64,000 nt of DNA from Acidobacteriota bacterium (GCA_965263035.1 OZ253580.1:320001-384000), one strand, 5' to 3'; positions 2,679 through 54,892 are shown, numbered from the stretch's first letter. A program made the numbers and translations. The notes: generated from the sequence alone by a model not told the origin.

Positions 2679-3201
2679 AGCGGTGGAGCCGGTCAAGCTC
2701 CTGGTGGCCCTCCTCTGGGCCGACGCCCGTTCCCGGGACCTGGCCTTGGAGCGTCTGGAGCTCCGGTGGGGCGCCATCGACTTCAGTGGAGCCGCCCGCC
2801 CGTTCGACGTCACCGACTACTACGAAAAAGAGATGGGACCGTCGCTGCGACGCCACCTCGTGAGCTTCTCCCGAATGATTCCGCCGGAATCCCTTCCGGA
2901 GGTGAAGCTGGCGTGCAACCGGATCGAGGAGCGGCTGGCCCGTCAGGGCCGGCGGAGGGTCAATCTGGACGCGGGTTACCTGGACCACAGCAAGGTGGTC
3001 CTGGCCAGCTTGAAGTTCGCCGGCCAGAAGATCCACCTGGGACAGGGCGTCTACGCCGACCTGATGAGCCGCTACCGGAAGGGCCGGTACCGGCCGCTGG
3101 AGTGGGCGTTCCCCGACTTTCGAGACGGGCGGTACGACGCGGACCTGGCACGGATCCGGGAACTGTACATGACCCGTCGCCGGACAAGGCGCTACGACTA
3201 G
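2665..3201 (+). CDS. DUF4416 family protein
   Basis: GTG start overlapping the NAT gene; TDYYEKEMG, RRVNLDAGY, IHLGQGVYADL and FPDFR pattern; its TAG stop is the IS630 insertion site. Confidence 0.72.
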   Translation: MARIEAVEPVKLLVALLWADARSRDLALERLELRWGAIDFSGAARPFDVTDYYEKEMGPSLRRHLVSFSRMIPPESLPEVKLACNRIEERLARQGRRRVNLDAGYLDHSKVVLASLKFAGQKIHLGQGVYADLMSRYRKGRYRPLEWAFPDFRDGRYDADLARIRELYMTRRRTRRYD

Positions 3202-20875: not shown

Positions 20876-20953
20876 GACAGGGGTCGGGAAGTACGGTTAC
20901 CCGGCTCCCCTCCCTCCGAACCGCACGTGCGGTTCTCCCGCATACGGCTCTCC
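20876..20953 (-). ncRNA. group II intron domains V-VI remnant (no RT)
   Basis: Minus strand reads GAGAGCCGTATGCGGGAGAACCGCACGTGCGGTTCGGAGGGAGGGG...CTTCCCGACCCCTGT, a canonical D5 (AGC triad) plus D6. Confidence 0.85.
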
Positions 20954-41299: not shown

Positions 41300-42016
41300 T
41301 CATTCAGCGGTGGCTGGATGGACCGTCGTGGCCGGGGCCTTCCCCAGCAGGGAACCTTTTTCCAGATGATGGTTGATCCGGGCGAAAGCCGCGGCGCGGG
41401 GATCGTGTGTGACCATGACAATGGTTTTGCCGAAGTCCCGGTTCAGGGCCTCCAGCACGTTGAGGATGTCTCCAGCCGAGTCGGCGTCCAGGTCACCGGT
41501 CGGTTCGTCGGCCAGGATGAAGGTGGGATCGGTGACGATTGCCCGGGCGATCGCTACCCGCTGTTCCTCGCCTCCGCTGAGCTGGCGCGGATAGTGGCGT
41601 ATTCGGTCCGACAGGTTCACCAGTCTCAGGGCGGTCTCCACATGCTCTCGCCGTTCCTGTCGGGAGAGTGAGGTCAGCAGCAAGGGGAGTTCGACGTTCT
41701 CGAAGGCGGTCAGGACAGGGATCAGGTTGAAGTGCTGAAACACGAATCCCACGTGTTCATTGCGCCAGACAGCCAGTTCGTCTTCGCTGAGTGCAGTCAG
41801 ATCTTCTCCCAGGACCTGGAGTTGGCCGCCGGTCGGCCGGTCAATCCCGGCAATCAGGTTGAGCAGCGTGCTCTTTCCGGAGCCGGACGGTCCCATCAGG
41901 CTGATGAAGTCCTGATCGCGGATATCCAAGGTGATGTCCTTCAGAGCGACGACCTGGACCGTATCACGCTGGAACACGCGGCTCAGATTGCGCATTTCGA
42001 TCAATACCTTCGTCAT
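41300..42016 (-). CDS. ABC transporter ATP-binding protein (MacB/LolD type)
   Basis: [29 protein letters not shown]. Confidence 0.95.
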
Positions 42017-42267
42017 CCCGTGTCCTCAGCGGTAGTGTCTTCAGCCCCGGAATCGGTCCGCTTGCGAAAGAAAGTGACCTGAACATCCATCTCCGGCCGA
42101 AGGTACTCATCCGGTTCCAGAATCTGGACCTTCACCTGGATCGTGGCTCGCTGCCGGTTGGCCTCGGGTGCAATCTCTTCCAACTCACATTCGTATTCCC
42201 GCGCGGGATAGGCGATGGGAGACATCCTGCACCCGTTTTCGGGCGAGATGTTGTGAAAATCGGATTG
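42013..42267 (-). pseudogene. C-terminal part of efflux membrane-fusion (MacA/HlyD-like) gene split by the integrated element
   Basis: QSDFHNISP...IAPEANRQRATIQVKVQI..LRPEM; joins in frame with 52813-53726 across the att core. Confidence 0.88.
42257..42267. repeat. att core, left copy (AAATCGGATTG)
   Basis: 11-bp direct repeat identical to 52813-52823, located exactly at the break in the MFP reading frame. Confidence 0.9.
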
Positions 42268-42302
42268 AGGGTCGCGAAGTATAATAAGGGGGAGGACACA
42301 AC

Positions 42303-42479
42303 ATGACGACGAGGACAGCGCACGAGATTCTGATGGAGGTCCGACGGGACCCGAACGCGACGAGGGAAGATCGGGACTTCGCCTATCGAAAGTACCTGCG
42401 GGCACTCACGGTCCAGTTCAAGCCGGCCTGGAAGACGGCCATTCGGACGGTCGGGACCCGACGGGAAAGTGCCAGATGA
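42303..42479 (+). CDS. 58-aa hypothetical protein coupled to the integrase
   Basis: TATAAT (42280-42285), GGGAGG RBS, ATG 42303; its TGA overlaps the integrase ATG (ATGA); below the ORF-track cutoff. Confidence 0.6.
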   Translation: MTTRTAHEILMEVRRDPNATREDRDFAYRKYLRALTVQFKPAWKTAIRTVGTRRESAR

Positions 42480-43504
42480 GCGGACGGGCCAACGGAAACG
42501 TTCTCCGATTCCCCGGCAGGCGGGGCTGCCTGTTCTCGGACGAGCAGATGCGGGAGATGAGGGCCGCCGACCCGGCCAAGGTCCTCCAGACGCCAGCCGC
42601 GTTGCGGCGGTCCACGTTGGAGCGCAGCTTCCTGTCGGTCAGCAACTCCACCTCCAAGACCTACAAGGCCGCGTTGCGCGGGCTCGACAAATGGCTCGAC
42701 GACCGGGACCTCGACGACGGGCTCTTGGCCGACTACGCGTTGAGCCTCCACCGGGACGGGAAGGCCCCGAGCACGATCTCGACCGTGCTGGCGGCCGCGA
42801 GGTTCCGGGCCAAGGCCCTGAGGCAGCCGAACCCCGTCGGACCGGAGACGGAAGCCGTGAGGCGTCACGTCCGGCGGGAGGGCGCCGGACGCGGCAAGGG
42901 ACAGGCCAACCCCCTGACCCGGGACGAGGTGGAGCGGGTGATCTCGACGGCGGAGCGGGACGGCTCGGTCTGGGCGATCCGGGACGCGGCGCTGGTCGCC
43001 GCCGCGTTCTACTGCGGGCTCAGGTCCGCCGAGGTCACGGCCGTCAAGGTTCGGGACCTGGAGTTCCGGGACGACGGGACCGGGCTCCTCTCGATCCGGC
43101 AGTCCAAGAGCGACCAGTTCGGGCGCGGCAAGACGGTCCCCATCCCGAGGCCGGCAGCCCGTCGGATCTCGGCGTGGCTCCGCCTCGCCGGCATCGAAGC
43201 GGGACCGGTGTTCCCGGCAATCCAGACGAACGGGATCGGCGGGGCGCCGCCGAAGGTCCTGGACAGGGCGATGCACAAGGTCCACACGGGTAGGATCATC
43301 CGGGACCGGGCCAAGGCCGCCGGGTTTCCCGGGATCAGCTCCCACTCGATGCGAAGGTCCTTCGCCCAGCACCTGAGCCGGGAGGGATACGAGACCCACG
43401 TCATCGCGGAGGCCGGTCGGTGGTCCGACCTGAGCATGGTCCTGCGGTACACGCAGGGGACCCGGGCCGCCCGGTCCGCCGTCCTCTCGGCGTTCGACGA
43501 GTAG
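42476..43504 (+). CDS. tyrosine recombinase (Cre-like)
   Basis: RDAAL..GLRSAE (R), SKSDQ (K), SHSMRR (HxxR), AGRW (W as in Cre), LRY (Y). Confidence 0.92.
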   Translation: MSGRANGNVLRFPGRRGCLFSDEQMREMRAADPAKVLQTPAALRRSTLERSFLSVSNSTSKTYKAALRGLDKWLDDRDLDDGLLADYALSLHRDGKAPSTISTVLAAARFRAKALRQPNPVGPETEAVRRHVRREGAGRGKGQANPLTRDEVERVISTAERDGSVWAIRDAALVAAAFYCGLRSAEVTAVKVRDLEFRDDGTGLLSIRQSKSDQFGRGKTVPIPRPAARRISAWLRLAGIEAGPVFPAIQTNGIGGAPPKVLDRAMHKVHTGRIIRDRAKAAGFPGISSHSMRRSFAQHLSREGYETHVIAEAGRWSDLSMVLRYTQGTRAARSAVLSAFDE

Positions 43505-43649
43505 ACCCCCCGGCGGGCTGTCACCGCAACACGATATGATTGTTCGCGTGGCCGATTTTCTCCTTTTCTGGCCACAAGCTGCCTCTCGGTTGGGGAGGGA
43601 ATTTGATAGCCTCCCTCCCCGATCCGCCGGGAGGGAGTATAATAGGCTA

Positions 43650-44095
43650 TGCGGGTCGCCACCCTTCCCCCGGCGATCCGTTTCGTGGCCCCGGGAACTC
43701 GCCGATTTCATTGCACAATCTTGGTTCCCTCCCGGGGCCTTTCCCCCTTCTGTCGTGCCGTTGGGGTAAAGTGGTTTCGCAATGAAATTGGCGAGACGCT
43801 TACCGGTCGGCAACGGCCACTTGCACCCAGCGCCAATCGAGCACGCCGTTACTGGGGGGGAGATCCCGCAGCGGCAGCCCAAGATCCACGGACGGAAGCG
43901 GGCTAGGGGAGATCGTCAGGTCTCAGAGAAATCCGTCTAGTCGCGGCTGCTGACGCAGTGAAACGCGGCCCCACGACGGCCCCTGCATATCAGGGTCCGG
44001 GCAAGGATCTGCACCTCGCAAGTCTTGGAACCTTCGGGTTTCGGGCGGGGAGGGGTAGATCCTCGCCCACTCAAACCCCGCATATTCGGATTATG
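43650..44095 (+). ncRNA. putative large structured non-coding RNA or structured origin
   Basis: TATAAT at 43638; 17-bp stem 43698-43714/43779-43795 with a G-U pair, nested stems, GCAA and cUUCGg tetraloop hairpins; no credible long ORF. Confidence 0.5.
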
Positions 44096-44341
44096 GGGAT
44101 TAAGGGGGAATGGGGAACGAGAGAGAGAAAGAGTATGTCGCCCGTCGAATCACCGTCTGGGTCAAGACCACCGAGCTAAGGGGGAAGGAGGGAGGTCGAA
44201 CATGATGGACTTGTTCAGGCCGTCGTGCCGAATCCCGGGATTTACGGCCAAATCCCTCAGTGGTATCAGCCGAGGGCAAGGGGACCCCTATGAATTCTCC
44301 CCGGAAAGCAGGGGGCGGTCGTGTGGGGGGTCTTCGCACAC

Positions 44342-45805
44342 ATGAGCCGCCGCCGGGTCGAGTGGCCCCCCTCGATAGACCTCAGGCCGTTCCAACGCCG
44401 GTTCCTGTCCAATCTGCTAAGGCCAAGCACCAGAACCGCCGTCCTCTCGATGCCGAGGGGGAACGGGAAGTCGACCTTGCTCGCCCACGTTTGCCGGAGG
44501 GTCATGGACCCCGGAGACAAGCTGTTCGCCGACGGCGAGGACGTCTACCTCGTCGCCAACAGCCTCCAGCAGGCCGTCAGGACGACGTTCGGGATCTTCC
44601 GGTCGATGATGCCGGACGACCCGTTGGCGTACCGCTTCACCGAGAACACACAGGCCGCCCAATGCCTTCACGTCCGCTCGCGGACCAAGTTGACGGTCCT
44701 CCCCGCCAGCGGCAAATCGGCCTCCGGGATCGTACGGGCCCGGCTGGTCGTCTGCGACGAGCCGGCCGCCTGGCACGCCGCCGCCGGCCTGACGATGTTC
44801 GAGTCGATCCAGGGGGCAATCGGCAAGCCGGGGTCCCGGCTGAAGGTCGTCTACATCGGCACCCGAAGTATCGGCGGCGCCGCCCCCCCGGACCCCGAGA
44901 GCTGGTGGCCGACCTTGATCCGGGAGGGGTCCCGGGGGTTGACCTACGTCCAATTTCACCAGGGGGACCCCGACCGGTGGGACCAGTGGCAGAACATCCG
45001 CCGGGCGAATCCCCTCATGAGCCTCTTCGCCGAGTCGAGGGCCGTCCTGTTGGAGGAGCGGGACAAGGCCCGGACCGATCCCCGGCTCCGTGCGGCGTTC
45101 CTCTCGGATCGGCTGAACGTCCCCCGTGGGGACTCCTCCGCGGTGCTCTTGACGGTGGACGACTGGCGGCGGGTGCTCGACCGGCCCGTGGCGCCGAGCT
45201 CGGGCCGCCCCGTCTGCGGGGTGGATTTGGGCGGCGGACGGGCCTGGTCGAGTGCCGTGGCCGTCTGGCCGGGCGGCAGGACGGAGGCGGTCGCGCTGGC
45301 CCCCGGGATACCGGACCTCGAACGGCAGGAGAAACGGGACGGGGTGACCCCGGGCACCTATCGGCGGCTGGCCGACATCGGCGCCCTCGTCGTGGCCGAA
45401 GGCCTCAGGGTGCCGCCCGTCTCCCTGCTGGTGGCTCACGTGCGGGAATGGGGACCCGCCGCCATCGTCTGCGACCGGTTCAGGTACTCCGAGTTGCAGG
45501 ACTCGAACCCCGGATGCCCGATCGTCCCACGGATCAACAGGTGGTCGAACAGCACGGAGGACATAAGGTGCCTCCGTCGCGGGTGCCTCGACGGACCGCT
45601 CTCGGTGGCCGCTGGCTCCCGGGCCCTGGTCGAGGCGAGCCTGAGGGTCGCGACCGTCGTCAACGACGATTCGGGGAACTCCCGGCTGCGGAAGTCGAGC
45701 AACAACAAGGCCCGGGACGACGTGGCCCAGAGTTGGCTGCTGGCCGCCGGCGCCAACGCCCGCAGGAGGCCCGCCAGGACGCCCAGGATCTCCTTGGTGG
45801 GCTAA
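44342..45805 (+). CDS. phage terminase large subunit
   Basis: RPFQ (Q motif), MPRGNGKS Walker A, VVCDE Walker B, CGVDLG and RDD nuclease acidic residues. Confidence 0.88.
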   Translation: MSRRRVEWPPSIDLRPFQRRFLSNLLRPSTRTAVLSMPRGNGKSTLLAHVCRRVMDPGDKLFADGEDVYLVANSLQQAVRTTFGIFRSMMPDDPLAYRFTENTQAAQCLHVRSRTKLTVLPASGKSASGIVRARLVVCDEPAAWHAAAGLTMFESIQGAIGKPGSRLKVVYIGTRSIGGAAPPDPESWWPTLIREGSRGLTYVQFHQGDPDRWDQWQNIRRANPLMSLFAESRAVLLEERDKARTDPRLRAAFLSDRLNVPRGDSSAVLLTVDDWRRVLDRPVAPSSGRPVCGVDLGGGRAWSSAVAVWPGGRTEAVALAPGIPDLERQEKRDGVTPGTYRRLADIGALVVAEGLRVPPVSLLVAHVREWGPAAIVCDRFRYSELQDSNPGCPIVPRINRWSNSTEDIRCLRRGCLDGPLSVAAGSRALVEASLRVATVVNDDSGNSRLRKSSNNKARDDVAQSWLLAAGANARRRPARTPRISLVG

Positions 45806-45920
45806 CCCGGAGAATTCATGGCATAATGACTTGAGCTTGACAATTTGAACCGCATGTGAGAGCCCGCCGCCGCTGATTGGCTGCCACCTCTTTAGCCGTG
45901 ACCACCCGGGAGGGGGAGCC

Positions 45921-46187
45921 TTGACCCGCAAAGAAGCCAACGATCGAATCTACTCGTCGCGACGGTGGCGACGCCTCCGCCTGTCGGTCCTCGACCGTGC
46001 CGGCTGGCGCTGCCGTAAGTGCGGGCGGGCCGGACGCTTGGAGGTCCACCACAAGCACCCTGTTCGCGAGGGCGGCGAAGCCTGGTGCGAATCCAACCTC
46101 CAGCCCCTCTGCCGTACCTGCCACTTCCGCACCCATGTTCCCCTGCCGGCTGACGTGGCCGAGTGGAGGGCCTTCGCCGGTGCCTAA
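45921..46187 (+). CDS. HNH endonuclease (HK97 gp74-like terminase cofactor)
   Basis: RWRRLR..L.R...CRKC...EVHH...NLQPLCRTCH. Confidence 0.9.
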   Translation: MTRKEANDRIYSSRRWRRLRLSVLDRAGWRCRKCGRAGRLEVHHKHPVREGGEAWCESNLQPLCRTCHFRTHVPLPADVAEWRAFAGA

Positions 46188-46950
46188 CTTGAGTAGGATA
46201 TGGCGGCTCCACCCATTGACCGGCGGGCAGCCCAGCAGCCACTCGCTCTCGATTTGGGTCGAGACGCTGGGGTTGCGGGGGGAGCCGTACGGGGACCGTC
46301 TGCAAAGCGCGGACCCGCCCAGTTTCATCTCCCCCGCCAGCGGCTCCGAAGAGGCGCCGTCCCCCCGGACGAAACGGGTCTACACCCTGTCCCGCATGGG
46401 CGACCCCGTGCTCGTGGACGTGGGGGACCCGATCGGCTTCGAGACGCTTCGCATACGCCACCGGGACCTGTCCACCCACTCGATCTTCAGCGACGAGGAC
46501 GGCCGGGAGTGGCATGTCGAGAAGTTCGCCGACCCCGACGGGCGGCGGCGCTGGACGCAGGTCGAGCTTGTCGCCTACCGGATCGCCCCACCAGACGAGG
46601 TCCCCTCGTTCACGGCCCCGACGGGCTGGACGCTGGAGGAGGGCGGGGACCCGGTCCAATTGCTGACCGTGTCGGCCCGTGTGCGGACCCAGGACGCCTA
46701 CCACGAATTCGTCGGGCTCCGGTTCGGCCACGTGAACGCGTGGACTGCTACCGGCTTCGTCGTCGGGGAGTACCCCGTCGAACGGCCTGACGGCCTTGAG
46801 GGGACATTGATGTTCACCCAGGGGGCCGACCCCCAGGAAGGTCTCGGGGCGGGGGAGGACTGGCCCGGAGACGGAGCCTGCCTCATCGACGGAATACTAG
46901 CGTCCCGGGCCCTGGAGCTCGGGGCCGTCATTCGAATCAAGGGAACCTAA
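46180..46950 (+). CDS. putative head-closure/head-tail adaptor protein with C-terminal extension
   Basis: GGAGGG RBS with GTG 46180; LRIRHR...WHVEKFADPDGRRRWTQVEL resembles SPP1 gp16/HK97 gp7-type stoppers; about 120 extra C-terminal residues. Confidence 0.5.
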   Translation: MPNLSRIWRLHPLTGGQPSSHSLSIWVETLGLRGEPYGDRLQSADPPSFISPASGSEEAPSPRTKRVYTLSRMGDPVLVDVGDPIGFETLRIRHRDLSTHSIFSDEDGREWHVEKFADPDGRRRWTQVELVAYRIAPPDEVPSFTAPTGWTLEEGGDPVQLLTVSARVRTQDAYHEFVGLRFGHVNAWTATGFVVGEYPVERPDGLEGTLMFTQGADPQEGLGAGEDWPGDGACLIDGILASRALELGAVIRIKGT

Positions 46951-46963
46951 ATGGAGGAGTGAC

Positions 46964-48190
46964 ATGACCAAAGAAACACGCGAGGCGCTGCTGAAAGCCA
47001 GCGAGATTCGCACCAAGATCAACATGGAGCAGGCCAAGTCCGAGCCGAATTCCGAGACCCTGGAGACCCTGCGAAAGCAGTCCCTGGACGCGGAGGGGGA
47101 ACTCCGGGAGGCCCTGGCCAAGGACGAGGACGACGAGTCCATCGCCAAGACCCCGGACCGCGAGGAGCGGGACCGCCTGGAGCTGCGGTCCAAGTCCCGG
47201 TTCCATCGGTTCGTCAGGGCGGCGGTTCTCGGCAGGGAGGTTGACGGCGCGGAGGCCGAGTATGCCGACTCCCTGGGCTGCCCCGGACTGGTCCCGCTGG
47301 ACCTGTTCGAGACCCGGAGCCGGGAGCAGCGAGCGGTCACTCCGGGCCCGGCCGACGGCGACGTGAACAAGACCACGGCTCGGATCGTTCCGGCCCTCTT
47401 CGACCGGTCGGTTGCGCCGTGGCTGGGAATCGCCATGCCCACGGTCGGAACGGGCATCCAGTCCTTCCCGGTGCTGAGCACCAGCCTGACCGGCGGACCC
47501 AAGGCCGAGGACGCGGCAGCCGCGGAGACGGCGGGCGCGTTCACCGTCACCGACGCCGACCCTCGGCGGCTCACCGGCTCGTTCAAGATCCGCAAGGAGG
47601 ACATCGCCAAGATGTCGGGCCTCGAGGAGTCCCTCCGGTCCAACCTGTCCAGCGTCCTGAGCGACGAACTGGACAAGCAGGTCGTCAACGGCACCGCACC
47701 GCACCTGAACGGCATCCTTGAGCAGCTCACCAACCCCACGGCCCCGGCTGCTTCGGCGGAGAGCTTTGTCCGATACGTCACTGCCTTCGCCTCGCACATC
47801 GACGGGTTGCACGCTGTCCAGGAAACGGACGTGCGCGGTCTCGTCGGTCGGCAAACGCTCCGGCACATGGCTGCCACTTTCGGTGGCGCGGCAGTCCGTG
47901 GGGACCGCTCGGCAGCCGAGTACCTGCGCACGTCGTTCGGCGGGGTGCGGGCCACGAGGCGGATCGCGGACCCGGCGAGCAACGTCCAGCAGGTCATCAT
48001 CCGTCGGTCCAACCCGGCAGGCGACCGGGTGGCCGTGGCTCCCGTCTGGAGCGGCTTGGAGTTGATCCGCGACCCGTACACCGAGGCTGGCAAGGGCCAG
48101 ATCGTCGTGACCGGGATCGTCCTGGTCGGCGGGGTCGTCCTGCTTCGGTCCGGCGCATTCGTGCAGGACTCGTTCAGACTGGCCGCGTGA
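46964..48190 (+). CDS. major capsid protein (HK97 fold)
   Basis: GGAGG RBS; N-terminal charged coiled coil (delta domain); LVP, ELDKQVVNG..LNGIL, LIRDPYTEA.KGQI, C-terminal AF. Confidence 0.85.
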   Translation: MTKETREALLKASEIRTKINMEQAKSEPNSETLETLRKQSLDAEGELREALAKDEDDESIAKTPDREERDRLELRSKSRFHRFVRAAVLGREVDGAEAEYADSLGCPGLVPLDLFETRSREQRAVTPGPADGDVNKTTARIVPALFDRSVAPWLGIAMPTVGTGIQSFPVLSTSLTGGPKAEDAAAAETAGAFTVTDADPRRLTGSFKIRKEDIAKMSGLEESLRSNLSSVLSDELDKQVVNGTAPHLNGILEQLTNPTAPAASAESFVRYVTAFASHIDGLHAVQETDVRGLVGRQTLRHMAATFGGAAVRGDRSAAEYLRTSFGGVRATRRIADPASNVQQVIIRRSNPAGDRVAVAPVWSGLELIRDPYTEAGKGQIVVTGIVLVGGVVLLRSGAFVQDSFRLAA

Positions 48191-48738
48191 TGCCAATCAG
48201 CATCCTGAGGGGTCCCGCCGGCGCGGGCAAGTCGCAGTGGTTAAGGCGGAACGTTGGGGATGGCGAGATCATCCTCGACACCACGCCGATTTGGGCTGCG
48301 TTGACCAACGTCGAGCGGGACCCAGAGGGCCGTTACCGGGTTCGCCTCTTGGGAGAACCCGGATTGCGGGCGGCCCAATTCGCCAAGTGGAGCACCTTGG
48401 CCTTCGCAGCCAGGGAGAACCTGCCGGCTTGGTTCACCATCGCCAACTCCTCACCGGAGGCCATCACCCGCGTCCAGCAGGTCGTGGAGCGTGCCGGCGG
48501 GAGGATCGGGCGGATACGGACCGAGGACCCCGGCTTGGATACGGCCCTGGATCGGCTGGTCATCCCCAAGGCGTCCGTACCGGACGGCTGGGAGATCGTC
48601 GAGGACGGGGACGGCCGGAAGTACCTGCTCGACGAGTGCGACAACGCCCTCGCCAAGTGGTACGCCCGGAGCCCGGTTGCGGCGCGGATCGTCGCGAAGA
48701 AATACGGGCTGGCGTCCCGGCGCTCCGGGAGGAGGTAG
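48187..48738 (+). CDS. small P-loop NTPase/kinase-like protein
   Basis: ILRGPAGAGKS Walker A, IILD; overlaps the capsid stop. Confidence 0.65.
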   Translation: MMPISILRGPAGAGKSQWLRRNVGDGEIILDTTPIWAALTNVERDPEGRYRVRLLGEPGLRAAQFAKWSTLAFAARENLPAWFTIANSSPEAITRVQQVVERAGGRIGRIRTEDPGLDTALDRLVIPKASVPDGWEIVEDGDGRKYLLDECDNALAKWYARSPVAARIVAKKYGLASRRSGRR

Positions 48739-48740
48739 AC

Positions 48741-49193
48741 ATGGTGGAGAAGATTCATCGAAACGTCGAGATGGAACTGAGGGAAGGCCGCAACGGGCCC
48801 ATGCTCCACGGGACGATCGTCCAAGAGGGACGGGCCGCCACCGGTGGCCGGGCCGAGTTGTTCGCCCCCGGGAGCGTCACCTGGCCGGAGAACGGCATCG
48901 GGATCAAGGTCGGCCACGACGGGACGGAGGAGAGCCGGACCTACCCCGTGAGGTCCCCGAACGGAGAGATCAGGATCGCGGCCAAGGCCACCGAGCGGAT
49001 GGTCCGGGCCGTCCGGGAGGGCAAGACGGGGATGAGCGTCGAGTTCATCGCCTTGAGTGAGAACCGGACCAAGGGCGGGGTCAGGGAGCTCACCCGTGCC
49101 CTGGTGGACGCGGCGGCCATGACGGCGACCCCCGAGTACCAGCAGGGGCGGGCCGAGCTCCGGGCCAAGCGGGGGTACCAGATATGGCTGTGA
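48741..49193 (+). CDS. HK97-type prohead protease
   Basis: GGAGG RBS; ELFAPGSV, VGHD (His), GMSVEF (Ser), TPEY. Confidence 0.82.
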   Translation: MVEKIHRNVEMELREGRNGPMLHGTIVQEGRAATGGRAELFAPGSVTWPENGIGIKVGHDGTEESRTYPVRSPNGEIRIAAKATERMVRAVREGKTGMSVEFIALSENRTKGGVRELTRALVDAAAMTATPEYQQGRAELRAKRGYQIWL

Positions 49194-49498
49194 ATGCCTC
49201 CCAGTTGGCCCTGGCCCTACGCATCGTCGCCGACGAGGGGGATAGCCTGCCATCGGGCCAGACGGCCGTCCTGACGCGAATCCTGGCCGTTTCCGTCGCC
49301 TTGGTCGAGAAGCACGTCGGCGAGGGCGACCTCGACACGGACGTGGAGGACGAGGCCGTGATTCGCCTGTCCGCGTACTTGTTCGACACCGACCCGGTAC
49401 GGTCCAGGGGGAACGCGATGGTCAACAGCGGGTGCGCCCATCTGATCGACCAGTTCCGAACCCGGCGATCCGCCGTGGTCGAGGAGGACGACGAATGA
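49184..49498 (+). CDS. head-tail connector (HK97 gp6-like)
   Basis: 104-aa helical protein, LALALRI..ALVEKH..DEAVIRLSAYLFD..LIDQFR. Confidence 0.7.
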   Translation: MAVNASQLALALRIVADEGDSLPSGQTAVLTRILAVSVALVEKHVGEGDLDTDVEDEAVIRLSAYLFDTDPVRSRGNAMVNSGCAHLIDQFRTRRSAVVEEDDE

Positions 49499-50493
49499 GG
49501 TTCCAAGGCCGGGAGGTCCGGCTACCGTGGGAGCAGCGCTCCACAAGCTACTCGGAACTGATCGTGGCCGGTCTCCAGGCCCGGGCCGGGGGGGATGCCA
49601 ACGCGGACCTGCTGGCCACCGTCGAGGCGGCCTGCGGGATCTGGGAGAGGTCCCTGGCTGCTGGACGGTCATCGGTCCTCAGTCCGGCGCAACTGGCGAT
49701 GATCGGGCGCTCCCTGCTGCTCACCGGCGAGTCGGTCTGGTGGAAGTCCATGGGGTCCGGCCTGATGCCGGTCTCCCAGTGGGACCTGTCGGGCAAGTCG
49801 GCGGCCCAGAGCCGGTGGACCTACAAGCTCACCCTCTCGGTGCCGGATGGGACGATCCTCAAGGACGCCCATTCCAAACGGGTCCTCCACGTGCGGATCG
49901 GCAGCACCCCGGACCGGCCATGGGAGGGCACGAGCCCCCTGGCCCGCTCCGCGGCCACCAGGGACGCGCTGAGGGCGATCGAGGCGTCACTCCGCAAGAG
50001 CCACCAGGGACCGATCGGGGACATTTTGCCCGTGCCGGACCCCACCGACGAGAACCTGAATTCGGCGCTGCTCGGACTCAACGGCAAGACGCTGCTGGTG
50101 GAGCACTCGGAACTCGGCCTGCCGGGAGAGGGTCAGTCCGGCCGGACGACCTGGAACCCGAGACGGATCGGGCCGGCACCCTCGGAGGGAACGGTAGCGG
50201 CCCGGGAACCACTGCGACGTGACCTGCTGGAGGCTGCCGGCCTTCCCCCGAGCATGGTGGCACCGTCCACGGCCAACAGCGCCAGGGAGGGCCTGCGCCA
50301 GTTCCTCTGGACCACCGTCTCCCCGGTCGTCGGGTTGATCTCGGCGGAGTTGGAGCGGGTCGGGCTCGACCCCGAGATCGACATGAGCGGCCTGAACGCC
50401 AGCGACCTGGCGGGCCGCGCCCGGGCACTGGGCCAGATGGTCAAGGCCGGGGTTCCGCTCGACGAGGCCCGGAGGCTCACCGGCATGGAATGA
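49495..50493 (+). CDS. phage portal protein (short, 332 aa)
   Basis: GAGGAGG RBS; ATVEAAC, LLLTGE, VLHVR..WEGTSPL, AAGLPP, LDEARRL pattern of HK97-type portals. Confidence 0.75.
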   Translation: MRFQGREVRLPWEQRSTSYSELIVAGLQARAGGDANADLLATVEAACGIWERSLAAGRSSVLSPAQLAMIGRSLLLTGESVWWKSMGSGLMPVSQWDLSGKSAAQSRWTYKLTLSVPDGTILKDAHSKRVLHVRIGSTPDRPWEGTSPLARSAATRDALRAIEASLRKSHQGPIGDILPVPDPTDENLNSALLGLNGKTLLVEHSELGLPGEGQSGRTTWNPRRIGPAPSEGTVAAREPLRRDLLEAAGLPPSMVAPSTANSAREGLRQFLWTTVSPVVGLISAELERVGLDPEIDMSGLNASDLAGRARALGQMVKAGVPLDEARRLTGME

Positions 50494-50623
50494 GGAATGA
50501 GGCTTGCGGCCACTCGCCGCCGGAGGCATGGGAAAGGTGCTCCGTCAACAAGAACCTACCCACAGCATTCTCCTTTTTCGGTTGGGGAGGGGGGCGACCC
50601 CCTCCCCGTTTTCCCCCGACCTG

Positions 50624-50995
50624 ATGGCGAAGAACCCCGAGACCGCGGAGCGGATGCGGAGGCTGTGGGCCGACCCGGAGTTCCGGGCCAAGCGGTCCGC
50701 CGCCATCAAGCGGGCCCACTCGAAACCCGACCTCCGGGCCAAGCGCCGGAGGATCACCACGAAACTCTGGCGGGACCCGGCCTACCGGGAAAGGGCCAGC
50801 GCCGCTTTGAGGGAGGCCCAGAACCGGCCGGAGGTCCGGCAGAGGAAGTCGGAGTCCATCCGGCGGGCCCTGGCCGCTCCCGAGCAGCGGGAGCGCCTGG
50901 GGAGGCCGCGCAGGCGGAAGGTCAGCGACTTCGCGGCCGCGTGGTTCGGGCTGGACGAGCCCTATGTCCCGGAGGGGGGTAGTGTCCTAATTTGA
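50624..50995 (+). CDS. basic helical-repeat (NUMOD3-like) DNA-binding protein
   Basis: Repeats LWADPEFRAKRS / AHSKPDLRAKRR / LWRDPAYRERAS / AQNRPEVRQRKS / ALAAPEQRERL; no nuclease domain; start uncertain. Confidence 0.55.
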   Translation: MAKNPETAERMRRLWADPEFRAKRSAAIKRAHSKPDLRAKRRRITTKLWRDPAYRERASAALREAQNRPEVRQRKSESIRRALAAPEQRERLGRPRRRKVSDFAAAWFGLDEPYVPEGGSVLI

Positions 50996-51176
50996 ATCTG
51001 GCGCAGAAACTCTCCGGGCTCGGCCCTGGAGGAAGGGACCAACGGACACTCAGAGCAGCGGCGGATCAGGATCGCTTCCCGACAGCGTGATTCGGCTGGA
51101 GTCCGGTTTGACCATTACAATCCCGGCGCATAGAATCAGCGGAAATTGACCGTTCTACCATGGGAGGAGGGTAGTT

Positions 51177-51560
51177 TTGAAGAAACAAAGAAGAACGATC
51201 AACGGTTCCGGTTCAAAATTGAAGCCACCCGAAAAGATACCTATTCAGTGGGTTCACGCAAAGGAATCTCGTTTGGTACCATATCACGGAGTGTTCGGGG
51301 GCCTCATACCCAGGGGGGATCTTCACGTCTCGATTTATGCTGAACAGATGCCCGACCCCGAGCCTGGACAGAATTTTCTCCAGCAGATTGAGGGTCAGAC
51401 AGGTCGGTACAAGGAAGAAAACAAACCCCGGAAGGCATCTCCGATCATCCGTGAGGTCCAGGTTCGATTTGTTATTCCACGCAGTCTGGTGCGCGATGTT
51501 GCGGACTGGTTCGCGCAGAAAGCGAACGAGATTGATCAATTCCCTTCTACCCCAGTGTAA
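51177..51560 (+). CDS. cargo gene A, hypothetical (DUF3467-like, possible chaperone)
   Basis: GGGAGGAGG RBS with TTG start; HGVFGGLIPRG..Y.E..P and IIREVQVRF...VADWF pattern. Confidence 0.7.
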   Translation: MKKQRRTINGSGSKLKPPEKIPIQWVHAKESRLVPYHGVFGGLIPRGDLHVSIYAEQMPDPEPGQNFLQQIEGQTGRYKEENKPRKASPIIREVQVRFVIPRSLVRDVADWFAQKANEIDQFPSTPV

Positions 51561-51585
51561 GCAGCCGGACAGAAAAGGAGGTCCG

Positions 51586-52170
51586 ATGACCAAAGAATAC
51601 AAGATGCCCAAATCTACGGCGGATGCTTCCTCCCTTCCGACAGTATTCTTGCTAGTGGGGTCGTTCGTGGCCGTGTGTCCGCTCTACGGAAATCATATAT
51701 CACATAGGGTGGACGGGTCGGGTCCGGAATCACTGACCGCCCCGGAAGTGATTATGAAGTCAGCGACCGATTACCCCAAGGAGCCGAGAGACCCGATTGA
51801 GGGCCCACCTAACGAAGGGGCTCTTCGGATGGTCGAGGAGATTTCAGAGGACTGCGCCATGGATGATTGGGACGGTGAAGGCGCAGACCGGGTCCCCTCG
51901 GAATCGGTCGTGATTGCTCGTAATCTCGTGGCGAATCTGCCCCCCCATGCTCTTACGACCGGACTTGACATCGATGCTACCCCGTTCGGCTCTATCGACT
52001 TCGAGTGGGTGCTGGAGACGGAAGCCATGTTGAACATCCTGATTCTCCCTTCAGGAGAGCTTGGTTTTGCTTATTCCGTTCGTGAGGACGTGGGTGAAGG
52101 CAAAGTGAGATGGGAAGGCTCGATTCCGACTCCTATTGCGGCGGCACTCAACAGAGTATTTGAGCAGTGA
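51586..52170 (+). CDS. cargo gene B, hypothetical (probable antitoxin)
   Basis: AAGGAGG RBS; probably disordered N-terminal ~75 aa, then an acidic domain with DDWDGEGA and PFGSIDFEW motifs. Confidence 0.7.
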   Translation: MTKEYKMPKSTADASSLPTVFLLVGSFVAVCPLYGNHISHRVDGSGPESLTAPEVIMKSATDYPKEPRDPIEGPPNEGALRMVEEISEDCAMDDWDGEGADRVPSESVVIARNLVANLPPHALTTGLDIDATPFGSIDFEWVLETEAMLNILILPSGELGFAYSVREDVGEGKVRWEGSIPTPIAAALNRVFEQ

Positions 52171-52565
52171 GTGGACGGGATTCAGCCCTTGCTCGATTTG
52201 CAGTATTCAGAAAGCAGATAACGCCGAGCCGAACGTTGCCGAAGCTATTCCGGCCAGATAAGCATAGGAAGGTTTCTGTCTTTCGGATTCAGGACAAGAC
52301 TTGCAAAGAGGTCGTATCGGTAGGGGTCGGAGTCGCAAGATCACATCGTGACTCTAGGAACTTATACGGTTGGGCGGAATTGACCTACCGACAGATTCAG
52401 AACATTGGACTATCCGTTGACGATGATGAGATTCCGAAGGACCACTCGCACATCGTGGGATGGCCTGACGATGAGGAGAGGTCTCTACGGTATCGACAGA
52501 GTCTTGCCAAACAGGCTGCGCGAATATTGCTTCCAAAACCTATTCCTGTACGGAACAGCATATAA
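52167..52565 (+). CDS. cargo gene C, putative ADP-ribosyltransferase-fold toxin
   Basis: GTGA overlap with B; basic 132 aa; LARF (R), F.P..VSVFR (S), G.A.L and HSHIVGW pattern of small ART-like toxins. Confidence 0.55.
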   Translation: MSGRDSALARFAVFRKQITPSRTLPKLFRPDKHRKVSVFRIQDKTCKEVVSVGVGVARSHRDSRNLYGWAELTYRQIQNIGLSVDDDEIPKDHSHIVGWPDDEERSLRYRQSLAKQAARILLPKPIPVRNSI

Positions 52566-52812
52566 TTGGTGCGAGTCAGCCCTTTCCCTTTGCGGCCATC
52601 GGCAAGAGTTGGTCCACTGACCCCGCCAGACCCGCCTCCAGAATACCATCGGGTGGGCGATGAGAGAAGGGAGAACCCGGCACAGTTGAAACCCATTCCC
52701 TAGTAAGATCTAGTCGGGGTCGGCTATTAACACCCGGCCCCTCTCCCACCCCCTCGAAATTCCCGTTTTACAAGGTCGGACGGATGTTGTATAATTCCCT
52801 TGGTTGTCGTAT

Positions 52813-52823
52813 AAATCGGATTG
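52813..52823. repeat. att core, right copy (AAATCGGATTG)
   Basis: Identical to 42257-42267. Confidence 0.9.
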
Positions 52824-53726
52824 GCTGATATCCAGCTCCGCCTGCAGATCCCGCAGATCCGCCAACGCCACCAGGACGGCTCCCCCCATAAAGTAGGCCG
52901 AGACCATTTCACCGACTTCAACGACTCGTTCCAGAATGGTGCCGCTGACGGGTGCCCGGATCTCCGTCTCCTGCAGTTGGGTTTGCCAGTACCGGATGGC
53001 CGCCTGGCTTCGCTCGAGCTCGGCACGGGCAGCCTGGATCCGCTCGGTTCGGGGGCCGATCTCCAGGAGCCGGTGGTTTTTCTCGGCGACGGCAACGGCG
53101 GCCTTGGCCATGTCGCGGCGAGACCGGGCATTGTCGACCCGTTGTTGAGCGATGACACCACTTTCGATGAGTTGGCTGAAGCGACGATACTCGAGATCGG
53201 CGATGTCGAATTCGGCACGGCTTCTTTCCAGCTCCGCCTGTGCGATCTCAATCTCTTCCGGCCGTGACCCGGTTTCCAGTTCGGTGAGGCGGGCCCGTGC
53301 CGAGTGAGAATCGGCTTCTGCCTGCTGGAGTTGGGCTCGGAATTCGGCGTCCTCCAGCCGGACCAGCAATTGGCCCTTTTCGACTCGATCCGATTTATCG
53401 ACTCCGACCCAGGCGACCTTCCCCATAATTCGGGAACTGACTTCGATCCGGTGATGAGGGACGATGTAGCCCGAGACGATCAGCAACGGCCCTTCCCGAT
53501 CCGACGCCCCATCGGCCGCAGCACCGGCAGGGGCAACCGTGGCCGGGTCCGCCCGGACCTCGGCCCGCGCCGCATCGGGCGTCTGCCGGGAAAGGTTGTG
53601 GAAAAGCAGCGCAGTCAGGACGGCGCCCGCCAGGAAGGCCGCCAGTCCGATCAGCCACAAGTTGGGGGACGGCCTGGAACGCCGGCGGTTGCGGTCGATG
53701 CGCAACGCTTTCAAATCTTTTTCCAT
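52813..53726 (-). pseudogene. N-terminal part of efflux membrane-fusion (MacA/HlyD-like) gene
   Basis: MEKDLKALRIDR, TM anchor, SGYIVP, VSSRIMGKV, IRAPVSGTILER, ending ..ELDISQSD at the att core. Confidence 0.9.
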
Positions 53727-54892
53727 CAGTCTCGCATCACATCGATCAAGCGCACCCGGGCGGCTCGTGCCGCCGGGAGCAAGCCACCGGCAATCCCCAC
53801 CAGGCTGACGAATAGAATCGCTTTGAAGAGAATTTCGGGAGTGATTCGAAAATGGAACAAGACTTCGCTGAAACTGGCGAAATTCGTGGTCCCCGTGGTA
53901 ATGCCGTGGACCGGCAGGGCCATGACACAACCCACGACTCCTCCCAGCAACGCCAGAAAAACGGACTCCGCCAGGAAGGATGCCAGGATGCTCCGTCTGC
54001 GAAATCCCAGTGCCCGCAAGGTCCCAATCTCTTTGAACCGGGCCATGACGGTACCGTACATCATGTTCATGGCGGCAAAGCAGGAACCGATTCCCATGAC
54101 CACCGCGATGAAGATGCCCAACGCCTTGAGTCCCACGGAGGATATCGTCTGTCCCTCGTAATATTCGGTTTGGGGAATGGCTTGCAGTTCGATGTTCCGA
54201 TCCTCCTCGATCCGTTTCGCCAGAGCCGCTCGAGCCTGTGCATTATTGGCGCGCACCAGGAAAGAGGTGTAGATCGGTCGATTCCAGGCTAACGCAATCT
54301 CGTCGTAGTCCCCCCAGATTTCGGAATCGTAGGCCGTGCCACCAGCATCGAAAATACCCACCACGGACCATTCAGTCTGCGCGATGGCCAAGGTATCGCC
54401 CAGCTTCATGTTCTTGAAGCGACGCGACAGTGAACGGCTCACGATCAGTTCCCGCACGCCTTTTGCATGGCGCCGTCCCTCGACGATCCGGACTTCCGGC
54501 CGCATTTCGAAGCCCCGGTTGCCGGTGCCGCGCACGACAATGTTCGAAGTCTCGTTTGCTCCCGCAATGCGCTCATGATTGATGACGACGATGAGCTCGC
54601 CGGAAGCCCACGGCTCATCGTCTTCGTCGCGAGCCACCTCCGGCAGAAAGCGGACCTTCGGAAAGAGGTTCCGGTCCAGATAGCTGTTGGTCTCGTTCTG
54701 GGAACCTTGCCGAATGACCACCAGGTCATTGGGGTTTCCGGTGTTGACGAAGGTCGAGTCGAGGCCTTCGATGAGGGCCATCATCGCGACCAGAATGGCC
54801 ACTGTGAACCCAATTCCCAATGCGGTCATCAGGGTGCCGACTCGCCTTACCCAGAGACTCCGCAGGTTGTATCGAATGGGGATCTTCATCAC
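53726..54892 (-). CDS. ABC transporter permease (MacB/FtsX family)
   Basis: YNLRSL..RTLMTALGI, periplasmic domain, EIGTLRALGF, LLPAARAAR. Confidence 0.92.
   Translation of the reverse strand: MMKIPIRYNLRSLWVRRVGTLMTALGIGFTVAILVAMMALIEGLDSTFVNTGNPNDLVVIRQGSQNETNSYLDRNLFPKVRFLPEVARDEDDEPWASGELIVVINHERIAGANETSNIVVRGTGNRGFEMRPEVRIVEGRRHAKGVRELIVSRSLSRRFKNMKLGDTLAIAQTEWSVVGIFDAGGTAYDSEIWGDYDEIALAWNRPIYTSFLVRANNAQARAALAKRIEEDRNIELQAIPQTEYYEGQTISSVGLKALGIFIAVVMGIGSCFAAMNMMYGTVMARFKEIGTLRALGFRRRSILASFLAESVFLALLGGVVGCVMALPVHGITTGTTNFASFSEVLFHFRITPEILFKAILFVSLVGIAGGLLPAARAARVRLIDVMRD

Follow-up and report, generated by a model that had tools for sequence, protein, structure and literature searches.

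What occupies the long interval between the integrase and large terminase genes of a small integrated element in an Acidobacteriota genome, and at which level, RNA or DNA, might it act? The interval lies within a 64,000-nt stretch of DNA, here called the window. Six public sequencing runs from three studies are listed as containing the sequence, none of them on record as RNA. The original prediction had read positions 43638-44095 as a highly structured non-coding region of about 450 nt, a candidate packaging or regulatory RNA. The spacer is most likely an internal control region of a small, satellite-like head and packaging element without tail genes. Its parts would be terminator hairpins of the integrase gene, a second promoter and a structured leader acting in cis on the packaging operon; this combination is our leading reading, which we hold tentatively.

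The host element

The spacer is carried by an integrative element of 10,556 bp (42268-52823), in which all ORFs were called on the plus strand. The element splits a HlyD-family membrane-fusion gene, the C-terminal piece of which (HlyD_D23 positions 152-212) lies at 42013-42405 and the N-terminal piece (positions 21-157) at 52710-53930, both on the minus strand. It is bordered by two copies of an 11-bp direct repeat, the att core (Table 1). The empty site is present in sequencing run X6, in which a contig joins 42267 directly to the letters of 52824-52841; in the same run, the host locus has about 40 times the depth of the element.

The 58-aa ORF that precedes the integrase gene has no family match. 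The terminase gene (terL) follows the spacer, and alignments of its product with the paralogues start at residues 9-14. Beyond terL, the order is a second spacer, a 184-aa ORF, an HK97-type capsid gene, a 183-aa Walker-A protein, a 155-aa ORF, a 104-aa ORF, the portal gene, a hairpin, a 123-aa ORF and two low-GC cargo ORFs. The 155-aa ORF is conserved in the element family and has no family match; by its position, it is probably the prohead protease. The 183-aa protein (48187-48738, Walker-A motif GPAGAGKS), encoded between the capsid and putative protease genes, is conserved in the related elements E6, E7 and E4 with 27-41% identity; it matches AAA_33 weakly and, at its Walker-A end, phrog_4581, annotated as 'TerS', also weakly (E 7.8e-4). 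The very basic 123-aa protein (50624-50995), encoded last in the head operon, contains PE.RAKRS.A.. repeats and may bind DNA; it belongs to no family and has a weak match to phrog_22215, of unknown function (E 5.5e-4). The cargo pair (277 and 132 aa, 51337-52565, GC 0.54) comes last, at the right-hand border; no family was found for it, and a paralogous pair with 41% identity is present at G000:C1:2907419-2908143 of the same genome.

Searches of the element ORFs with Pfam, PHROGs and NCBIfam found no tail, holin/lysis, replication/Rep, primase or repressor families, and recognised no small terminase subunit (TerS), AlpA-type regulator, primase-replicase, head-tail adaptor or connector. The premise that a TerS is missing, from which the original prediction started, holds to the extent that none is recognisable with these three collections. 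Since no tail or holin genes were found, the element likely borrows its tails from a helper, by analogy with known satellites.

Capsid-forming PICIs (cfPICI) are satellites that contain an integrase, an HK97-type capsid, a portal and a TerL of their own, without tail or holin genes; their core includes TerS, an AlpA-type regulator, a primase-replicase, a head-tail adaptor and a connector, and their hosts are Proteobacteria and Firmicutes (PMC10085698). The element studied here is like a cfPICI in having an integrase, TerL, capsid and portal and in that no tail or holin genes were found, and unlike one in that no TerS, AlpA-type regulator, primase-replicase, adaptor or connector was recognised and in that the host belongs to the Acidobacteriota. 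A literature search for phage satellites in Acidobacteriota found no relevant paper.

Table 1. Coordinates of features in the element, its spacer and related loci (window positions unless another sequence is named)
Feature	Position	Strand	Remarks
11-bp direct repeat AAATCGGATTG, left copy	42257-42267	.	att core, attL side
AGTATAATA, copy 1	42278-42286	+	ahead of int operon with its 58-aa ORF; putative -10 element
58-aa ORF, GGAGG Shine-Dalgarno	42303-42479	+	stop overlaps int ATG (ATGA); codon score +0.185
Tyrosine integrase (int)	42476-43504	+	Pfam Phage_integrase 3.3e-18, phrog_1 8.3e-31
Hairpin H2 (GTGGCC...GGCCAC)	43548-43575	+	behind int stop; dG -11.9, z -2.45
Hairpin H3 (GGGGAGGGA/TCCCTCCCC plus lower stem)	43578-43638	+	dG -40.2, z -5.42, 0/200 shuffles
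AGTATAATA, copy 2, with TATAAT 43638-43643	43636-43644	+	putative terL-operon promoter
Hairpin H4, 16 bp, 11-nt loop, four G.U	43645-43690	+	dG -25.5, z -3.96
Domain A: closing stem, 17-bp stem, two inner hairpins	43685-43820	+	z -2.93 (+), -1.67 (-)
GUCG-GCAA-CGGC hairpin	43806-43817	+	alternative to domain A closing stem
Hairpin B, 70-nt imperfect palindrome, cUUCGg cap 44033-44036	about 43999-44068	+	dG -44.8, z -5.56
Purine-rich unstructured tract, repeated TAAGGGGGAA words	44085-44200	+	z +1.3 to +1.5
100-nt stretch absent from one X6 contig	44164-44263	.	joint 44163 to 44264
Large terminase subunit (terL)	44342-45805	+	phrog_9 3.7e-35
Second non-coding spacer, ~590 nt	45806-46395	.	between terL and 184-aa ORF; not unusually structured
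Hairpin behind portal (GGGGAGGGGG...CCCCCTCCCC, then GTTTTCC)	50578-50609	+	dG -28.2, z -1.9; second 14-mer copy
11-bp direct repeat AAATCGGATTG, right copy	52813-52823	.	attR side
Sister elements	G000:C1 ~17.4-22.7 kb, 1.786-1.794, 4.880-4.887 Mb		own genome
Sister elements	G000:C1 ~5.099-5.106, 5.137-5.144, 5.352-5.358 Mb		own genome
Further members of the element family	loci L019-L023		
Small ORF upstream of terL, E5	G000:C1 ~5102.5-5102.9 kb	-
Small ORF upstream of terL, G004	L020 5431-5922

A non-coding, single-copy spacer

The spacer (43505-44341, 837 nt, GC 0.61) separates the tyrosine integrase and large terminase genes and is described here on the plus strand, which is that of all genes of the element. 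It is non-coding by GC3, by codon log-odds and by homology searches. GC3 is about 0.9 in the flanking genes, a value that no frame of the spacer reaches. A codon log-odds score trained on 601 long ORFs from this genome is negative for each of the ten spacer ORFs (-0.12 to -0.44 per codon), compared with +0.16 to +0.46 for nine high-GC ORFs of the element; three low-GC ORFs from its right end are likewise negative (-0.14 to -0.44). None of the ten spacer ORFs is present in a collection of 15 billion proteins. The region had been predicted to be non-coding, which these results bear out; because they apply across 43505-44341, the true spacer of 837 nt exceeds the interval first proposed.

The frame at 43782-43940, which had been named as an example of where a conserved protein might be hidden, contains a 52-aa ORF with no homologue and a negative codon score, the least negative among the spacer ORFs; a residual coding-like periodicity is seen there. 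Further downstream, a 47-aa ORF (44202-44345) overlaps the start of terL with its 3' end (ATGA). An 85-aa ORF at 43649-43906 was considered as a protein and discarded: its five matches are all to proteins of 499-5869 aa, in 5-12 stretches each, and were read as repetitive and spurious.

A search of the genome with the spacer returns only the spacer itself, and the idea that it might be a MITE or other repeat was dropped because it is single-copy. A search for tRNA and tmRNA genes found none.

Local folding with a plus-strand bias

Inspection of the sequence at 43200-44600 located every motif on which the original prediction was built, at the coordinates given for it. On the plus strand, the interval 43638-44095 folds with a z-score of -2.93 (1 of 100 shuffles as stable), and on the minus strand with one of -0.93 (17 of 100). 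Values for 43505-43830 are -5.19 as plus-strand RNA, with none of 100 shuffles as stable, and -2.24 as minus-strand RNA. When scanned locally in 140-nt sliding windows on both strands, the zone 43500-43790 reaches z-scores down to -4.6 (plus) and -3.6 (minus) and the zone 43950-44140 one of -3.1 on the plus strand; structure is absent from about 43800-43950 and about 44050-44340 (-0.5 to +1.5), and the coding flanks mostly stay at |z| < 2. The strongest zone, 43505-43640, follows the int stop directly and lies outside the start coordinate originally given. Folded in its entirety, the putative leader (43644-44341, plus-strand RNA) has a z-score of -1.49, no better than chance. As a background, 29 non-coding-like windows of 326 nt from the genome were folded; one has z <= -5 and four have z <= -3.

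The structure of the spacer is real but local and patchy. Of the claim that some 450 nt are highly structured, the above-shuffle stability of the plus strand stands, while 43820-43950 is without structure. The strand bias that had also been claimed is present in 43505-43830 and in H4, whose four G.U pairs would read C.A on the opposite strand; hairpin B does not share it, being of near-equal stability on both strands. A non-coding region with above-chance folding biased to the plus strand fits a role at the RNA level, probably a regulatory one.

The 9-bp hairpin noticed originally pairs 43652-43660 with 43672-43680, including one G.U pair, and is lengthened in the MFE structure to the 16-bp H4. 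Domain A is closed by GTGGCC (43685-43690) and GGCCAC (43815-43820) and contains a 17-bp stem (43698-43714 with 43779-43795) that is 94% complementary, the sole exception being a G.T on the plus strand, as well as an inner stem, CTTTCCCC/GGGGTAAAG. The GNRA hairpin overlaps the GTGGCC/GGCCAC closure in its bases, so that the two are mutually exclusive. Downstream of domain A are CCCTG/CAGGG at 43981-43995 and GGAACC-TTCG-GGTTTC at 44027-44042; the GCGGGG/CCCCGC pairing does not form part of the MFE structure. The spacer also contains a tandem duplication, D1, GGGAGGG/CCCTCCC boxes, and complementary G-boxes and C-boxes at 43592, 43612, 43627 and 43726.

Palindromes such as the 17-bp arms and the 70-bp hairpin B, together with the AGATCC words, might instead form a site that is read as DNA, either a pac or cos site or an origin, which we consider distinctly unlikely. 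In phages and satellites, cos and pac sites are commonly found just upstream of the terminase gene, and the spacer lies directly upstream of one; hairpin B is strand-symmetric, 43505-43830 folded as plus single-stranded DNA still has a z-score of -4.11, and three AGATCC words occur within 221 nt. However, the folds of H4 and domain A prefer one strand, contrary to what is expected of a duplex site, no Rep, primase or TerS was found to read such sites, and related elements do not have a similar site upstream of terL. The GATC density, moreover, equals the genome mean (8.4 per kb in the spacer versus 7.9 per kb), which, with no Rep gene found, leaves the suggestion of origin iterons without a basis. 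The five GATC and three AGATCC within 221 nt are a cluster picked after the fact and count as weak; the excess of direct repeats next to a Rep gene that marks an iteron-type origin was not found.

Hairpins behind the integrase gene

Hairpin H3 and the hairpin behind the portal gene have a 14-mer in common, TCGGTTGGGGAGGG, which the genome contains at these two sites only. The T-run behind the portal hairpin consists of GTTTT only. The stems of H2, H3, H4 and hairpin B are not followed by a T-run, and a scan of 43300-44500 for intrinsic terminators (a GC-rich stem with a U-run) gave no sites. The closest integrase genes, those of E3 and G003 (products 42-43% identical), have structured zones with perfect terminator-type hairpins directly behind them. 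H3 is probably a terminator or stabiliser for int. At least 120 metagenome and at least 30 viral stretches match the hairpin pattern GGTTGGGGAGGG-N(3-15)-CCCTCCCC; none of them contains the spacer or genes of the element, the exceptions being a look-alike hairpin of 56 nt that follows an unrelated gene and a single remote integrase. A pattern this widespread makes the hairpin type generic.

In phage lambda, sib is a very stable retroregulation hairpin downstream of int, and in the prophage it is cut off from int because att lies between the two. The hairpins described here are like sib in being very stable, downstream of the integrase gene and on the int strand. They are unlike it in that the att core is located upstream of int, so that integration does not part int from the hairpins at 43548-43690.

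A candidate promoter in front of a putative leader

The TATAAT at 43638-43643 corresponds to a sigma-70 -10 hexamer. A -35 hexamer is absent 16-18 nt upstream, where the bases 17 nt upstream read CTCCCC, and a scan for sigma-70-like promoters returned no sites because TATAAT is not accompanied by a -35. Genomic TATAAT sites show no -35 signal upstream either. The 9-mer in which the hexamer is embedded, AGTATAATA, occurs four times in the 6.2-Mb genome, counting both strands, and two of these copies are in the element, both on the plus strand. Within the element, TATAAT itself is found four times on the plus strand and is absent from the minus strand, compared with about 0.26 per strand expected from the 306 genome sites. 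The rare twin of the 9-mer and the strand skew of TATAAT favour a putative second element promoter at 43636-43644. Copies of GTATAA(T/A) are also found around the att core (42279, 52789 and 52809); given this clustering, the word could be a binding site for the recombinase or a regulator rather than a promoter. The genome as a whole has fewer TATAAT sites than its base composition predicts (306 versus about 574, counting both strands).

A promoter at 43638 could also give rise to a free-standing RNA acting in trans, as a switch of immunity or induction or as a packaging cofactor. Stable, plus-biased folds are located directly downstream of TATAAT, the element is without a recognisable repressor, TerS or replication gene, and the G-boxes and C-boxes could pair alternatively. 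Nevertheless, we regard such an RNA as very unlikely: no terminator-like end is found 3' of domain A or hairpin B, there is no Rfam match on either strand, no homologue was found and the sister elements lack it. A specific form of the proposal appears more improbable still: H4, domain A and hairpin B would together make up a structured transcript of some 430 nt, started at the TATAAT of the element, that would either switch immunity or induction in trans, as P4 CI RNA does, or serve as a cofactor marking the DNA of the element for TerL. What stands of the original non-coding RNA is, therefore, the non-coding character and the above-chance fold of the plus strand; its free-standing nature is not supported.

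The Rfam check that had been proposed gave no family for the spacer on either strand. Using Rfam 15 on the whole window, no spacer match reached the gathering score; the only match is a group II intron catalytic domain in a lower-GC stretch at 20877-20952 on the minus strand (52 bits, E 2.5e-07). When 43400-44400 was searched with E up to 10, the best matches scored 14-20 bits, compared with gathering scores of 33-112, at E >= 0.18, and phi29 pRNA, C4/P4 CI RNA and bridge/omega-type guide RNAs are not among the matches listed. In the related loci, Rfam found nothing besides tRNAs. The P4 CI/C4 antisense RNA and the phi29 pRNA are small structured RNAs of phages and satellites with roles in immunity or packaging. 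The spacer differs from them in having no Rfam match at gathering score and no predicted discrete RNA ends. With no Rfam family, and no related element sharing a structured spacer upstream of terL, the suggestions that an RNA substitutes for TerS or Rep or guides recombination are left without support.

Comparison with related elements

The genome contains about seven diverged elements of like make-up, the TerL proteins of which are 25-53% identical to the one studied here. The elements measure about 8-10 kb and contain int, terL, HK97 capsid and portal genes, with gene order and orientation shuffled. TerL of elements in sister species is 54% (G004) and 48% (G001) identical, and that of an element in a Dehalococcoidia MAG, the only locus from the TerL-guided search of genome contigs, 51%. 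The TerL-guided search found no close relatives in viral contigs or in metagenome contigs, and tblastn of TerL against 50,697 phage records gave no match at E <= 1e-10.

Searches with the spacer itself were negative. Its DNA was found in 0 of 40 relatives and in none of the phage records; blastn matches did not exceed 21 nt, whether in the regions preceding terL in seven paralogues or in the genome as a whole, and tblastx against 11 related elements aligned nothing but short segments of low complexity that are out of synteny (best E 0.001). Covariance models built from the single sequences of domain A and hairpin B (R1 and R2, with E-values that are rough) returned self-matches only at E < 0.07 in 41 genomes; in seven related loci, their best E-values were 0.076 and 0.25, at places that are not equivalent. 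Upstream of terL, the related elements have no strong structure, the lowest 140-nt z-score being -3.0.

In E5, G004, E1 and E3, a conserved small ORF of 128-164 aa is located directly upstream of terL (E5 versus G004, blastp 3.8e-11; no PHROG match), which may encode a regulator or the small terminase of these elements. The element studied here has no such ORF, and neither tblastn nor tblastx revealed a trace of this family in the spacer. The absence leads to another explanation, according to which the spacer is largely functionless: ordinary int terminators would be followed by the decayed remnant of genes once upstream of terL, and the stems would stem from local inverted and direct duplications and from the low complexity of G-runs and C-runs. 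Apart from the small ORF, this explanation would account for a spacer unique to the studied element, for the presence of a second one of about 590 nt after terL, for duplication D1 and the GGGAGGG/CCCTCCC boxes, and for the coding-like periodicity at 43782-43940. We consider it somewhat unlikely, because tblastn and tblastx gave no trace of the lost ORF family and because z-scores of -4 to -5.6 with a plus-strand bias are unexpected under neutral decay.

The variant of the element in run X6 bears on the same question from both sides. Compared with the spacer, it differs in 9 of 620 letters (1.5%, within 43544-44163); the corresponding figures are 21 of 1608 (1.3%) for terL and 40 of 839 (4.8%) for int. 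The divergence of the spacer is thus close to that of terL and below that of int, and a value as low as terL's argues against a functionless spacer. At the same time, one X6 contig lacks 100 nt of the spacer, including the Shine-Dalgarno sequence and ATG of the 47-aa ORF, making this stretch dispensable in a natural variant, as a functionless spacer would allow.

A proposed control region of the packaging operon

Control of the packaging operon in cis, our leading though tentative reading, draws on the position of the spacer, the strand bias of its folding, the twin 9-mer ahead of the int operon and the small divergence of X6. Counted against it are the missing -35, the missing canonical terminator, the z-score of the whole leader, the strand symmetry of hairpin B and the related elements, which have neither the sequence nor a comparable structure. 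In the mechanism that we propose, H2 and H3 (43548-43638) would end or stabilise the int transcript, by analogy with the terminator-type hairpins of E3 and G003. The AGTATAATA at 43636 would be the second promoter of the element, twin of the copy before the int operon. Transcripts from about 43650 would then reach terL through a leader of about 690 nt, composed of H4, domain A, hairpin B and the purine-rich tract. The folded parts of this leader may act in cis, as pause or attenuation sites or as processing or stability elements; alternatively, they may be targets of an activator from a helper phage or the element. The leader would in this manner gate the expression of the packaging and head genes.

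SaPI and PICI have a control region upstream of their packaging operons. The spacer is like the late-operon leader of a satellite or small prophage in being non-coding, directly upstream of the terminase gene and on the operon strand, with a promoter-like element and folded RNA. It is unlike satellite leaders in that it contains no known activator or repressor site and has no homology, and that its putative leader of about 690 nt is unusually long and only patchily structured.

Should the leader reading be true, the spacer is of an ordinary kind: it controls a packaging operon, within a host element that is unusual. In that case, it would offer a handle on how head genes are switched in a satellite-like island of a little-studied soil phylum. 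It would be far more important only if a discrete trans-acting RNA exists. The element family is possibly worth more than the spacer: these are islands of about 10 kb with int, terL, capsid and portal genes, several per genome, with a terminase that has no match among deposited phages and copies in sister species and a Dehalococcoidia MAG.

Two further observations concern other non-coding regions of these elements. In the sister element E1, an imperfect hairpin of about 170 nt, with no Rfam match, is located some 300 nt upstream of the integrase gene (G000:C1:16966-17135, L024 ~2967-3136), where 326-nt windows have z-scores of -7.3 and -9.3. In the X6 variant, the second spacer (45806-46395) contains deletions of 109 nt and 66 nt.
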